A stretch of 5,035 nucleotides of DNA, taken from an uncultured archaeon (lineage in GTDB: Archaea; Asgardarchaeota; Lokiarchaeia; Sigyniarchaeales; Promethearchaeaceae). This document shows positions 490-4,921 of the stretch, in pieces. Within the stretch, counting starts at the first letter, position 1. Each line of letters begins with the position of its first letter. A program made the translations under genes and the position numbers. Where the stretch lies: the NCBI GenBank assembly GCA_964426185.1, contig CAYRPF010000018.1:1-5035 (forward strand), written 5' to 3'. Under the pieces are notes generated by a model. That model made no database searches. It saw only the letters and a program-made list of their open reading frames with translations, and had not been told where the DNA came from.

Positions 490-559
490 TTTTGCCTCGC
501 CTCGATGATAGGAGAAGTTGAGATTATCAAGATTTAGCTATAGAAATGGAAGTGTTGAA

Positions 560-2416
560 ATGAAATACAAAAGAAATATTAAAATTTTACTTGTTGGGGT
601 TCTTTTCTGTATTCTTCTATCTTTCTCGAGCAATCTAAATATAGTTCGAGCAGAAACGACAGAAGAAGAATCTGTGATCTTTAATATGGGTGGTCAACAA
701 ATGAGCTCGTTTACCACTCTTGATCCTCTTACGTATATGTCCATGCCCGAGATGGATATCATCTTTAATGTTCTTGAAGGCTTAACGACTTGGGTAACAC
801 ATGCTGATGGGTCCACTTCTATTGATCCATGCCTCGCAACTTCATGGGAATTTGAAGATATTGTAACTTTAAATGTCCATCTAAGAGAAGGTGCTTCGTT
901 TACAGATGGAACGCCATGGAATGCAACAACTTGTGAATGGAACTGGGATCGGTTAGCCAATTTGTATGCATGGTCTGGATTCGCTGGAGTTTTATCTCTG
1001 CCTGCTGATCCATTCCGAGATGTCTCTGGCGTCGATTTAAGTTGGGCTCCTGGAGGGGGTTATATTTATCCAATTAATCACACAGAAATTACAGGTGAAT
1101 ACGATATCACTTTTCACTTGAATGTACCTTATGATTTGATGAATATTATTGGGCCACACTATCGAATGATTTCCCCAACAACCTTTGCTGACTATCTATG
1201 TCAATACATGCCCGCCACATGGTTAGGAAACGAGCTTTCTGAAGTTTTAGACCTTGGGTTAGTTGGGACTGGTGCTTACTACTTAGATGAAATCAATTTT
1301 AATGAAGAAACTACGACTCTTCTGAAAAACCCTGATTGGTGGGGTCCAGAAGCTACTATTGATGTTTTGAATTACCGATATTATGCCAGTGGTGAGGATA
1401 CCATGACTTTGGCACTAGTCTCTGGTGAGCTTGACGCAGCGACCTATATTAATAAAGATATTATCGAGGGAAAGTCCAATATCGTATATTTGGGTGACCC
1501 ACAAGTTGGTGTCGGCCAAATGATTTGTATGTTACCTGAAAAAGTAAATATATCGGTTCGGGAAGCTTTAAATTATGCCTTTAATGACCAATATTTCCTT
1601 GATGAAGTGTTAGGTGGAGAAGGTGTCTTGGCTCCAGGTGCTATATTCCTTGAACAAACTTATTCAGATGATTCAGTACATCCACCAAGATTTAATTTAA
1701 CCCGTGCCAGAGAAGTTTTGATTGATTCTGGAATCGCTCCAGCAGGTGCTTCAGAGTGGACAAATGACGATTGGTTAGACGTGGCTGATGGAGATGGCTC
1801 TGTGGGTCCCCTCGGTAACTATACATTAGGATACATGGACAATTATGGAATGCCTGATTGGGCCGCATCTATGCAATCCGCTGCCCGTACAGTTGGTATT
1901 AACATTAGCTTGGTTATTGAGTCTGAAGCGACCTATTTCAACACAATCCTTAACCGTACAGAAGTGGGTAAGAAATATGATATGTTTTGCGGTATGATGG
2001 GAATGAGTTCAGCTGTTGAAATGACATTATTAATGATGTATTCTTCATCCGCTTTTTACGGTTTATCCATGCCATTGGGAGGAGTACCTGAAGTAGATGA
2101 AGCGATTTGGAATTTCATGAAAGCTTCCCCCGAGGACACTGAAACTCGCCAGACATACGCAAACCAAGTAGCAGATCGTATTAACAATGAGCTTTTCTAT
2201 TTTGCATGGATACCAGTGGGAAACTTCCCATGTGCTTACTCTAATGAATGGACTAACATCAGTTCCTTAATTGATACACGACCATGGCAATGGGTTCCAG
2301 TGACAGAAAATGGTAATGATGAAGAGAAAGTATCAGTGCCTGGATTCTCTTTAATATTCTTAGGATTCGCTTCAGCTGTTGGTGTAATTGCAATTATCAA
2401 GAAAAAAAGAGAATAA
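560..2416 (+). CDS. ABC transporter substrate-binding protein, family 5 (oligopeptide/dipeptide/nickel, OppA/DppA-like), secreted and C-terminally membrane-anchored
   Basis: Family-5 SBP motifs: 'TLDP', 'NVLEGL', 'PCLATSWE', 'LREGASFTDGTPWNA', 'VGTGAY', 'KNPDWWG', 'ALVSGELD', 'VREALNYA', 'FNLTRAREVL'. ATG at 560 is preferred over the ORF-track TTG at 518 because it directly begins a Sec-type signal peptide (MKYKRNIK, hydrophobic core, VRA|E) and follows GGAAGTG. The substrate cannot be called from sequence. Confidence 0.9.
   Translation: MKYKRNIKILLVGVLFCILLSFSSNLNIVRAETTEEESVIFNMGGQQMSSFTTLDPLTYMSMPEMDIIFNVLEGLTTWVTHADGSTSIDPCLATSWEFEDIVTLNVHLREGASFTDGTPWNATTCEWNWDRLANLYAWSGFAGVLSLPADPFRDVSGVDLSWAPGGGYIYPINHTEITGEYDITFHLNVPYDLMNIIGPHYRMISPTTFADYLCQYMPATWLGNELSEVLDLGLVGTGAYYLDEINFNEETTTLLKNPDWWGPEATIDVLNYRYYASGEDTMTLALVSGELDAATYINKDIIEGKSNIVYLGDPQVGVGQMICMLPEKVNISVREALNYAFNDQYFLDEVLGGEGVLAPGAIFLEQTYSDDSVHPPRFNLTRAREVLIDSGIAPAGASEWTNDDWLDVADGDGSVGPLGNYTLGYMDNYGMPDWAASMQSAARTVGINISLVIESEATYFNTILNRTEVGKKYDMFCGMMGMSSAVEMTLLMMYSSSAFYGLSMPLGGVPEVDEAIWNFMKASPEDTETRQTYANQVADRINNELFYFAWIPVGNFPCAYSNEWTNISSLIDTRPWQWVPVTENGNDEEKVSVPGFSLIFLGFASAVGVIAIIKKKRE
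2336..2416 (+). other. PGF-CTERM-like (Loki-CTERM-like) archaeal C-terminal sorting signal
   Basis: The C-terminus VPGF-SLIFLGFASAVGVIAII-KKKRE has the tripartite layout of archaeosortase substrates (PGF motif, transmembrane helix, basic tail), preceded by an acidic linker (TENGNDEEK). Confidence 0.75.
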
Positions 2417-2424
2417 TCTCTTTT

Positions 2425-2449
2425 ATAGCGGGATAACCGCTATTTTTTT
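2425..2449 (+). terminator. Hairpin plus T-tract terminator of the SBP gene
   Basis: ATAGCGG-GATAA-CCGCTAT (7-bp stem, 2425-2443) runs into T7 (2443-2449), starting 9 nt after the stop codon. Confidence 0.7.
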
Positions 2450-2453
2450 ACAG

Positions 2454-2487
2454 ATAATTAAGGAGGATGTTTTACAAGACCCTCCTC
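2454..2487 (-). ncRNA. Second DVI-like hairpin, probably the displaced DVI and 3' end of the remnant intron
   Basis: GAGGAGGGUCUU-GUAA-AACAUCCUCCUU-[A]-AUUAU: a long stem with one C-C mismatch, a GNRA tetraloop, a candidate bulged A at 2459 and an AU end at 2454. Confidence 0.6.
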
Positions 2488-2489
2488 AA

Positions 2490-2518
2490 GAATCAAGGGG
2501 GACTACGCCCCCCTGCTC
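2490..2518 (-). ncRNA. Group II intron domain VI (intact intron) with bulged branch-point A at 2493
   Basis: GAG-CAGGGGGG-CGUAGU-CCCCCUUG-[A]-UUC, starting 4 nt after DV. Confidence 0.8.
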
Positions 2519-2522
2519 AGCA

Positions 2523-2556
2523 GAACCGACCGTACGACTTTCACCGTAGTCGGCTC
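2523..2556 (-). ncRNA. Group II intron domain V (intact intron)
   Basis: 34-nt GAGCCGAC-UACGGU-GAAA-GUCGUA-CG-GUCGGUUC with the AGC triad, a 2-nt bulge, a GAAA tetraloop and both stems fully paired (including G-U). Confidence 0.95.
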
Positions 2557-2670
2557 AGGCTCCAAGTACTCCACTTCATGTCGCCATGTCTCCTTTATTC
2601 CCAGTCTTTGATTGAAAATCCAAGGACTTCAAGTCACCAATTCATCCTTTATAGGAGATGTCGATCTTCT

Positions 2671-4203
2671 TTATTTAATAGATATATGTTTCCCTTTCTT
2701 CCGTTTTTCCTTACGTTTTGCCCAATAATCCTTCGCAGATGGATCAAAAGGACTTAAATGAATCCGTACTTTGGGGTATTTCCACCACTGACATGTAAGT
2801 GTCCAAGGTTCTAACAGATAAACACCTTCAAACGAAAATGCCCAATTATTGGTTCCATTTCTACCCCAGTATCGATTCTTAATCCATTTCCTTCCGCGGT
2901 CAGGATGACGTTTTCGAGCCCAATTCCATAGGATTTTAAAGATCCTGTATGAGAGATAACTAAAGCTATCATGTGCGTTAGACCATTTATAATAATTGCA
3001 AAATCCCCGTATTCTTATGTTCAGACCAATTATCATATCCTTTATATCTTTATTCCAACTGATTCCGACGAATTCCTTAAGATCCTTGAGGAATCGATCT
3101 ATCCGCTGTCTCTGTGGTTTAAAGATACTCTTCTTGATTGATCCGTCCTTTCGGTAGTACCTTTGGAAAGAAAATCCCAAAAAATCAAATCCTTCAGAAA
3201 TGTTTACAATCTTAGTTTTAAGGGAATTAAAACTAAGTCCTACCGATTGCAAATGCGATTTAATTTTTGGCATAACATATTCTATGATAATTTCCTTAGA
3301 GGGTGTTATTACTATAAAGTCATCAGCATATCTAAACACACCAATATCTTTATTCTGCTTTCTTCGATTGGATGGTGCAATGTACCTACCAGTTCTTGTG
3401 TTAATACCAAACATTCTTTCCATTCCATCTAGTGCGATATTAGCTAATAAAGGGCTTATTATTCCGCCTTGGGGTGTTCCTTTATTTGTACGTTCAAATC
3501 CAATTTGAGAAATTGCACCACTTTTTAGCCATGATCGTATAATACCGTGAAATGGGCTTGTTTTGATCTTTTCGAGTAAAGCATTATGGTTTATGTTATC
3601 GAAACATTTAGATATATCTGCATCCAAAATCCACCCTGGATGGATTCTACGTCCTTTTTGGGGGAGTAATGATGTGTAAATATGGTGTGCCGCGTCAAGT
3701 GCACTTTTCCCAGGTCGGAAACCAAAACTATGTGGTTCAAATTTTGCTTCCCACTCAGGGTTCATTGCCATATTGACTAAGGCTTGCATTACTCTGTCAA
3801 GAATTGTTGGGATACCTAGTTTCCTTTTATCACCATTGGACTTTGGGATCCACACAATCCGAACGGGTTTTGGAATGTACCCATTAAATTTTAAGTTTTC
3901 TACAAGTTGTATTTTCTTGTCGGCGGTTTTATATAATTTTCCATCAACTCCAGGAGTGTTCTTCCCATTATTAATTTCAGTAATTAATCTAACTGCCCAT
4001 AGTCTTGCAGAAAGTGATCGAGTCAGAAGCTTCTGGGTTTGTTTTACCTGTCTGAAATTTCCGACTTGAGTATCTCGGAAAATCCTCTGTTGGAGATTCT
4101 CTACACGATGTTTGATTATGTCCCAATTAATTTGGTCCCAATCTATATCCATCGGTTGGTTGATGCATACAAATGCTTGATTTGTCTCACGCCTTTCTTC
4201 CAT
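2671..4203 (-). CDS. ltrA: Group II intron-encoded reverse transcriptase/maturase, no HNH endonuclease domain
   Basis: RVT_N-type N-terminus (WDQINW..VENLQQRIF..QKLL..SLSARLWAVR), then GKNTPGVDG, IPKSNGDKRKLGIPTILDRVMQ, FEPHSFGFRPGKS, DADISKCFDNINH, GTPQGGIISPLLANIAL, catalytic YADD (3319-3330), GFDFLGF and domain X (LNIRIRGFCNYY). It ends shortly after SPFDP..DYW with no Cys-pair or HNH motifs. An alternative start is MDIDW at 4152. Confidence 0.95.
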   Translation of the reverse strand: MEERRETNQAFVCINQPMDIDWDQINWDIIKHRVENLQQRIFRDTQVGNFRQVKQTQKLLTRSLSARLWAVRLITEINNGKNTPGVDGKLYKTADKKIQLVENLKFNGYIPKPVRIVWIPKSNGDKRKLGIPTILDRVMQALVNMAMNPEWEAKFEPHSFGFRPGKSALDAAHHIYTSLLPQKGRRIHPGWILDADISKCFDNINHNALLEKIKTSPFHGIIRSWLKSGAISQIGFERTNKGTPQGGIISPLLANIALDGMERMFGINTRTGRYIAPSNRRKQNKDIGVFRYADDFIVITPSKEIIIEYVMPKIKSHLQSVGLSFNSLKTKIVNISEGFDFLGFSFQRYYRKDGSIKKSIFKPQRQRIDRFLKDLKEFVGISWNKDIKDMIIGLNIRIRGFCNYYKWSNAHDSFSYLSYRIFKILWNWARKRHPDRGRKWIKNRYWGRNGTNNWAFSFEGVYLLEPWTLTCQWWKYPKVRIHLSPFDPSAKDYWAKRKEKRKKGKHISIK

Positions 4204-4424
4204 TCAATCATCTCTATTACAGATTTATTTCCGTTGGAGTCACGGGTAGTCAGCTTCCTTTCGGAATGGTTATTAACCTATCCCTTCAATTACAGAGGGG
4301 CATTCACTTTCACCCGATCTCTATCTCCCTGCTTATTTACATGGAGATTTTTACGAAGTTCATATATACAGACAAGATACAACCTTTAGAGACTTGCTAT
4401 ACCCCGAGCATTTTTGATCAGATA

Positions 4425-4449
4425 GATATGTAAAAAAAGAATACATATC
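4425..4449 (-). ncRNA. Domain Id3 stem-loop carrying EBS1 (CUUUUU, 4439-4434)
   Basis: Perfect 8-bp stem GAUAUGUA/UACAUAUC with loop UUCUUUUUU. CUUUUU is exactly complementary to IBS1 AAAAAG (4739-4734), which abuts GUGCG and supports the 5' splice site. Confidence 0.85.
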
Positions 4450-4740
4450 CTAATGCCAGTGCCTTCTTTGGTCGTCACAGTGTATCAACTCCCTTTCACT
4501 GCGTAAGTTTAACGAGGCTTCAGTTACAAGTTCACCGAAGTTTCTCATGGGTTGTTTTGGCTAGCCCTATCTGCATGGGGAGTTAGCAGAATCGGTACAT
4601 TACCACTCATGCTTTGAAACCCCACTCTTTTGGATAGGAGTTCGAGTGATTGCCACGAATAGTCTGATTCTATTGCCAGTTTTTATATGTCATCTCTTTC
4701 TGGATTCTATATATACGCTTATCTTCGTCGCACCTTTTTG

Positions 4741-4774
4741 GAACCACGCGTGGGAGTTTCCCCGTACGTGGCTC
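4741..4774 (-). ncRNA. Second group II intron domain V (remnant intron)
   Basis: 34-nt GAGCCACG-UACGGG-GAAA-CUCCCA-CG-CGUGGUUC with the AGC triad, a fully paired 8-bp lower stem, a CG bulge and a GAAA loop. The upper stem has two mismatches. Confidence 0.88.
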
Positions 4775-4864: not shown

Positions 4865-4921
4865 TTAAGATCTTCCATGCTTATTTCGATTTAACCAATA
4901 ATCCCGAAGAATTGGGTCAAA
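4865..4921 (-). pseudogene. C-terminal fragment of a group II intron RT/maturase
   Basis: Translates as FDPILRDYWLNRNKHGRS*, against FDPSAKDYWAKRKEKRKK in the intact IEP (FDP, DYW and R identically spaced). Similarity stops upstream of FDP, and an in-frame TGA lies 12 codons upstream. Confidence 0.8.

Follow-up and report, generated by a model that had tools for sequence, protein, structure and literature searches.

The window analysed here, a 5,035-nt stretch of Lokiarchaeal (Asgard) DNA, very probably carries the relic of a twintron, in which an inner group II intron ending at G2487 lies within domain VI (DVI) of a truncated host group II intron, and the NNG terminus of this inner intron is the hallmark of a whole clade. 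The events behind this arrangement would have begun with a mobile, endonuclease-less, chloroplast-like (IIB) group II intron that retrohomed into the 5′ strand of the DVI of another group II intron, its EBS1 (CUUUUU) reading AAAAAG at the base of the host J5/6-DVI. Insertion would have displaced the remaining host DVI, now hairpin 2, and the inner intron would be excised as GUGCGAC...A-UUC-UUG through its own DVI (hairpin 1), with A2493 as the branch point. Positions refer to the window and to its minus strand unless stated otherwise (Table 1).

Table 1. Positions of the intron parts and neighbouring elements in the window
Feature	Position	Strand	Evidence
Host RT ORF, C-terminal remnant (FDPILRDYWLNRNK...stop)	4865..4921	-	tblastn against host-type and inner RTs
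Host intron domain V, 34 nt	4741..4774	-	Rfam RF00029, 26.7 bits
Host J5/6 and first bases of the host DVI 5′ strand, CAAAAAG	4734..4740	-	Uninterrupted host-type copies
Inner-intron IBS1, AAAAAG	4739-4734	-	6-bp pairing with EBS1
Inner group II intron, 2,247 nt, GUGCGAC...GAUUCUUG	2487..4733	-	GUGCG, EBS1-IBS1 register, clade homology
EBS1, CUUUUU	4434..4439	-	9-nt loop 4441-4433 of hairpin 4450-4424
J2/3, AGAGAU; gamma = A4320 in A4320-G4319-A4318-U4317	4317..4322	-	J2/3 alignment of the family and AY relatives
Inner intron-encoded protein, 510 aa: RVT_N, RVT_1, GIIM	2671..4203	-	Pfam
Inner intron domain V	2523..2556	-	Rfam RF00029, 43.4 bits, covariation
Inner J5/6	2522-2519	-	
Inner domain VI = hairpin 1 (G2518-C2490), bulged branch A2493 with 3 bp beneath	2490..2518	-	Covariation
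3-nt tail UUG, G2487 as probable last intron base	2487..2489	-	Terminal G invariant; LRR/XPF boundaries
Hairpin 2, assigned to the host DVI remainder	2453..2486	-	Alignment with 15 uninterrupted host-type DVIs
Hairpin and T-run terminator of the SBP_bac_5 gene	2425..2449	+	Sequence, fold, Pfam

Architecture of the inner intron and its host

The 5′ end of the inner intron, GUGCGAC at 4733, directly follows AAAAAG, which forms six of six pairs with EBS1 (4439-4434), and about 530 nt of ribozyme lie between this end and the RT ORF (4203-2671). The ORF is intact. The 34-nt domain V (DV) displays the AGC triad and a 2-nt bulge. Across 20 relatives, its 14 pairs were paired in 99.6% of cases, nine of them with double changes, and the 12 pairs of DVI were paired in 95.8%, ten with compensatory changes that include the three basal pairs below the branch A. 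For the two domains combined (20 members), 97.9% of cells were paired, 19 of 26 pairs were double-changed, and none of 500 shuffles did as well. The bulged A2493, followed by three covarying base pairs and a 3-nt tail, stands at -7, at the 7-8 nt spacing of group II introns. Relative to the RF00029 cut-off of 40 bits, the inner DV/DVI scores above and the host DV below. The RF00029 model mis-pairs the inner DVI with the adjacent terminator hairpin.

RNAfold analysis of 2560-2420 gave both hairpins at -58.6 kcal/mol (z = -5.86; 0/200 shuffles as good). This bears out the tandem DVI-like hairpins that a preliminary description, made from the sequence of the window, had reported, and its statement that no AY lies 7-8 nt after the bulged A2493 is equally borne out: C2490 is followed by U2489, U2488, G2487, A2486 and G2485. 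In hairpin 2, A2486-U2479 pairs with A2468-U2461, and G4734 with U2460; the hairpin is followed by A2459, A, U, U, A and U2454.

Pfam analysis of the 510-aa inner RT detected no endonuclease domain. The best solved relative of this RT is that of TeI4h (6ME0_C, E = 1e-86), and in the RT tree the G-terminal clade lies beside cyanobacterial RTs, the closest bacterial RTs being cyanobacterial. Similarity to TeI4h and tree position point to a CL/IIB-like RT. The motif GACCAAA (4467-4473) is conserved in all family members regardless of their 5′ exon, and is therefore unlikely to be an exon-binding site (EBS2).

Among 154 genomes of the same order, the upstream DV has many matches that break off exactly at GUGCG; these are uninterrupted host-type introns. 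The host DV is 75-92% identical to the DV of such introns in 11 related genomes. Fifteen uninterrupted host-type introns from related Lokiarchaeia read DV-GGUUCC(U/A)AAAAG-AGGAAGAGG...CCUU-A-UUU-AAC. Their DVI is normal: the branch A lies at -7 and the intron finishes in AC. The window carries this host-type sequence split after AAAAAG by the inner intron, and removal of 4733-2487 in silico restores a host-type J5/6-DVI that aligns with all 15 uninterrupted copies. This reconstruction implies that the 3′ two-thirds of the host DVI form hairpin 2 and that the arrangement is a twintron, the inner intron being flanked by both parts of one outer-intron domain (DVI). Judged by its position-for-position match to the 15 host-type DVIs, hairpin 2 is the displaced rest of the host DVI. 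Homology would place the end of the host intron at C2453, with the branch A2459 at -7 and a tail A-U-C; the earlier placement of the A of the second hairpin at -6 from an AU end is superseded.

On the 5′ side of the insertion, DNA homology to host-type introns is restricted to 4808-4734, and the host RT remnant is recognised by a 14-residue C-terminal match (4921-4880). Apart from this RT C-terminus and the DV region, nothing intron-like was found 5′ of the insertion, and no DI-DIII; the remnant breaks off at 4921. Intron-like sequence 5′ of the insertion amounts to approximately 190 nt and falls short of a complete outer intron. The host intron thus appears to be a 5′-truncated remnant incapable of splicing, and because such a remnant cannot splice, the window would contain a single functional 3′ splice site.

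The same kind of nesting was observed elsewhere. In Ca. Harpocratesius repetitus, a member of the same genus, the equivalent site carries a 745-nt 5′ fragment of the inner type (99% identical) followed by unrelated sequence, and the host DV loop is split by a third intron ending ...CUUACCCGAC (locus L060, G006:C1:3409000-3419000, minus strand, ~5575-5650), which gives three nested elements at the site. One metagenome contig carries the same inner-intron type in a different host-type DVI. The genome of the window itself contains this one RT and two DVs in total, and no further copies were found in it. Other members of the G-terminal clade also lie within introns: one (L122:1325-1452) is nested in another RT ORF, just before LLANIALDG, and the member with the L007/L102 3′ flank lies within the 5′ ribozyme part of a host-type intron, with an RT (MCESIEQNKG...) downstream. 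A match of genome G085 to window positions 2461-2430 was set aside as chance AT-rich similarity.

Regarding the genomic surroundings, the SBP_bac_5 gene (518-2416, plus strand) encodes a 632-aa solute-binding protein with a signal peptide, whose C-terminus (PGF...hydrophobic...KKKRE) resembles the PGF-CTERM sorting signal of archaea. The terminator hairpin of the gene lies 4 nt from the 3′ end of the host intron remnant, which it flanks, and is part of neither intron. A 100-N scaffold gap (G000:C18:5036-5135) directly follows the window, and past it a DUF885 gene on the minus strand ends at ~5140; its distance to the host remnant spans the gap.

Excision boundaries and the terminal G

Family members that interrupt protein-coding genes allow the boundaries to be read exactly. 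Three of them (L129, L112 and L113) reside in leucine-rich-repeat (LRR) genes, where interrupted repeats read TCTCTC(GUGCGAC...UUG)CCCGA. Uninterrupted repeats of the same genes provide empty sites, and all 12 of them read TCT CTC CCC GA (with TCT/TCC variants). At L129:767-835, two intron copies occupy consecutive repeats exactly 69 nt, or one 23-codon repeat, apart. The repeat sequence UCUCUC/CCCGA constitutes a multi-copy homing site.

A further G-terminal intron lies in an ERCC4/XPF-like nuclease gene of two Promethearchaeum MAGs (loci L075/L076 at G012:C90 and C125, L013 at G012:C389 and L057 at G011:C208). Exon 1 ends in ...CAA/GUGUGAC and exon 2 opens at UUG/CUC, while the intron-less ortholog of a third genome (L069, G013) reads FFSQ-LQHLK (CAA CTG) without a gap. 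Differences in exon 2 between the two MAGs are, as judged by eye, mostly synonymous, and both exons appear to be under purifying selection. The XPF case is one of a group II intron within a conserved protein-coding gene of an Asgard archaeon.

The layout of the EBS1 loop, (N U)(6 nt)(U), is constant across the family, and the 6-bp EBS1-IBS1 helix, which covaries in six different targets, stops at the base before GUGCG. G, C, U and A all occur at this position, and the base there pairs with the first base of EBS1; being variable, it belongs to the exon. The EBS1 comparison was made without L007/L102, whose 5′ end is possibly an insertion or a nest, and the XPF intron is absent from it, domain I being unassembled in G011 and G012. 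Together, the LRR and XPF empty sites and the EBS1-IBS1 register indicate that the family is excised as GUGYGAC...NNG. Applied by homology to the window intron, this would make G2487 its last base, start the 3′ exon at A2486 and set the branch A2493 at -7. Since G4734 and G2487 are both G, the junction in the window is ambiguous by one base, and homology alone resolves it.

The NNG end, UUG and not AY in the window, recurs throughout the family. In five other genomes, inner-type relatives inserted at unrelated sites read ...GA(U/C)UC(U/A)UG and then diverge. A metagenome scan with the RT alignment yielded approximately 25 further members (52-70% RT identity), and the family-wide end pattern is ...GA(U/C)U(C/U)NNG, with no second hairpin in any relative. 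Every family 3′ end present on a contig shows the bulged A, three base pairs and NNG. These ends comprise UUG, AUG, GUG, ACG and AAG (UAUG in one member): all finish in an invariant G, ~85% of members have U just before it, and C, U or A follows it.

Phylogenetic analysis of the RTs placed the G-terminal introns in a single clade (SH-aLRT 100, stem 0.72, 27 rows). No G end was seen in the 69 tree rows outside it, though many of those 3′ ends are unread; among these rows are cyanobacterial relatives of the CL type and the host-type clade, with AAU, AAC or GAC as their sequenced ends. A covariance model of the DV/DVI region was run on 151 genomes of the order; it detected G-type ends in 8 of them, with scores well separated from those of host-type ends. 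Members of the G clade come from sediment metagenomes and from eight or more Lokiarchaeial genomes; the GC content of their loci ranges from 0.36 to 0.59, so that the hosts are probably diverse. As judged by alignment and RT phylogeny, the non-AY end is a trait of the whole RT lineage and not a defect of the window copy. The non-canonical 3′ end noted in the preliminary description is thus genuine: the homologues, checked for a normal AY, all carry a non-AY end. One G-clade intron occupies two sites (L182 and L207; G150:C1:1478434 and 2950565) that have the first 7 nt of the 3′ exon in common (CAUGUGG), which suggests target recognition beyond +1.

The invariant G departs from standard pairing with gamma. 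Gamma was assigned to the x position that opens the x-G-A-U motif of J2/3, a motif matched by A420-G421-A422 of the P.li.LSUI2 J2/3 (PMC6224600). In about nine independent groups of AY relatives, gamma is A where the intron ends in U and G where it ends in C. In the G clade, gamma is always A and the last base always G, which do not form a Watson-Crick gamma-gamma′ pair, and no penultimate A precedes the terminal base as it does in AY ends. The preliminary description had taken both of its candidate ends to finish in U, in keeping with gamma = A; the assignment of gamma stands, and the terminal base is G. Pairing of gamma with the penultimate base was rejected, members ending in ACG or AAG still having gamma = A. 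A covariation scan for EBS3 against the base after the G returned U4362 as the best position (p = 0.024 alone, 0.73 family-wise), with 13 Watson-Crick and 3 G.U pairs among 18 members, or 12 of 17 Watson-Crick when one near-duplicate is left out; being non-significant family-wise, this position is not counted as evidence.

That the G clade has lost the standard 3′ grip, consisting of the Watson-Crick gamma-gamma′ pair and the contact of the first G with the penultimate A, and recognises its invariant terminal G instead, is an unlikely proposal. Such recognition may, for example, take the form of a purine-purine A.G pair or of a first-G/last-G contact. Nuclear GU...AG introns make a first-G/last-G contact.

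Competing readings of the 3′ end

The preliminary description had offered two models of this 3′ end. One closes the intron a base earlier, at U2488, with a UU terminus and the branch A at -6. The G would then be the first exon base (IBS3), kept constant by a fixed EBS3. This arrangement would supply a normal A-U gamma-gamma′ pair, since every member has gamma = A and ~85% have U immediately ahead of the G, and an invariant G is a behaviour possible for a fixed IBS3. We consider it very unlikely in view of the coding genes. With the canonical GUGCG 5′ end, counting the G as exon breaks the frame of the LRR genes and likewise that of XPF. Moving the 5′ site one base upstream saves the frame, but such a shift of both splice sites predicts TCTCTG-CCC, which occurs in 0 of the 12 uninterrupted LRR repeats, and it is also opposed by the variable base before GUGCG that pairs with the first EBS1 base. 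Members ending in ACG or AAG with gamma = A argue against it as well. What survives of this model is that hairpin 2 lies outside the inner intron; the end moves to G2487 and the branch A to -7.

In the other model, hairpin 2 is a B.c.I4-like "domain VII" belonging to the inner intron, with splicing at 2454/2453. The string A-UUC-(hairpin)-UUAU formally yields an AU end, and there are class B introns that carry a 3′ extension (PMC1865049, PMC2691827; reviewed in PMC4424553), yet this reading is highly improbable. Hairpin 2 corresponds position for position to the DVI of 15 uninterrupted host-type introns, whereas no inner-intron relative retains conserved sequence past the terminal G, and the ~25 relatives at unrelated sites have no second hairpin. 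In relatives within coding genes (LRR, XPF) the splice site immediately follows the G. The RT is CL-like (TeI4h), not demonstrably class B, and U2454 is polymorphic (U/A) between strains.

A missing AY caused by a copy-specific mutation or an assembly error, which would leave a mutated or mis-assembled 3′ end, has a negligible chance of being the explanation. The window does end at a scaffold gap, and repeats often mis-assemble, but NNG is found in every family 3′ end read, across many metagenomes and eight genomes of the order, and the intact ORF and perfect EBS1-IBS1 pairing do not suggest a damaged copy. Moreover, a single contig from an independent study (run X3) covers 2338-3687 and spans the junction with 4 differences from the window, and a JGI contig (L100) is identical to the window stretch. 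The hairpin region is not mis-assembled. Two strain variants were recorded: 2454 A>T (plus strand) changes the end of the host remnant from AUC to the family AAC, and 2513 C>T (plus strand; G2513>A in the RNA) changes a G.U pair of the inner DVI to A-U. Four DNA runs contained strain SNPs; neither a joint nor an empty-site contig was found in them. The twintron relic, with an inner intron ending at G2487, remains the preferred reading.

Relation to known introns and significance

Homing of archaeal introns into introns is already known from Methanosarcina (PMC4424553), where nested group II introns of M. acetivorans and M. mazei were reported (Dai & Zimmerly 2003, summarised in PMC4424553). 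As far as that summary describes them, they resemble the window in that archaeal introns home site-specifically into other group II introns, outside host genes, and in that nesting keeps a "perpetual homing site", as with the three elements at the equivalent place in H. repetitus. According to the same summary, the Methanosarcina introns target intron ORFs, whereas the window intron appears to target the ribozyme core (DV 3′ strand, J5/6 and DVI base).

Class B introns of the B.c.I4 type likewise have a hairpin after DVI and no usable AY at the usual distance; their extension, however, lies within the intron, is conserved in relatives and precedes splicing 53-56 nt downstream (PMC1865049, PMC2691827). 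In the window, by comparison, the hairpin would derive from another intron, is absent in relatives, and splicing is predicted right after DVI. All relatives diverge immediately past the terminal G, and those in LRR and XPF genes splice at DVI plus 3 nt, not 50-70 nt past DVI. To our knowledge, no 3′ extension other than the domain VII of class B introns has been described.

There is also a likeness in ribozyme and protein to bacterial CL (IIB1) introns such as TeI4h of Thermosynechococcus (PDB 6ME0), with which the inner intron has in common the RT, the 34-nt IIB-type DV, the J2/3 xAGAU, the EBS1 loop and a DVI with a bulged A. Sequenced cyanobacterial relatives have canonical ends (A-GUUU-AAU, UUACCCGAC) whose last base fits gamma, whereas the G clade has an NNG end, a gamma unable to pair with it and no En domain. 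Euglena and cyanobacterial twintrons also place an intron within a structural domain of another, and there the inner intron must leave before the outer one folds (PMC4424553; Trichodesmium, PMC4649490). In the window, by contrast, the outer intron appears to be a dead, 5′-truncated intergenic remnant, for which sequential splicing would be neither needed nor possible.

AY is the stated 3′ consensus of group II introns (PMC4424553, PMC4028801), annotation pipelines incorporate the GUGYG...AY boundary rule (PMC4028801), and gamma-gamma′ counts as a textbook second-step contact (PMC6224600). Our literature searches, which did not extend to Dai & Zimmerly 2003 or Simon et al. 2008, turned up neither an account of a G-terminal clade nor one of Lokiarchaeial group II ribozymes. 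A well-supported RT clade that always ends in G and yet has gamma = A suggests that the grip on the 3′ splice site can be remodelled. For studying its recognition, clean natural substrates are available in the LRR and XPF genes. Boundary predictors that seek AY will misplace the 3′ end of G-clade introns.

If recognition of the terminal G, unlikely as we hold it to be, were true, the G clade would be a natural model for an intermediate between the 3′ splice sites of group II and spliceosomal introns, its relevance arising from members in Asgard archaea, including one in the conserved gene XPF. The twintron itself would be another case of archaeal introns parasitising the conserved catalytic core of other introns.
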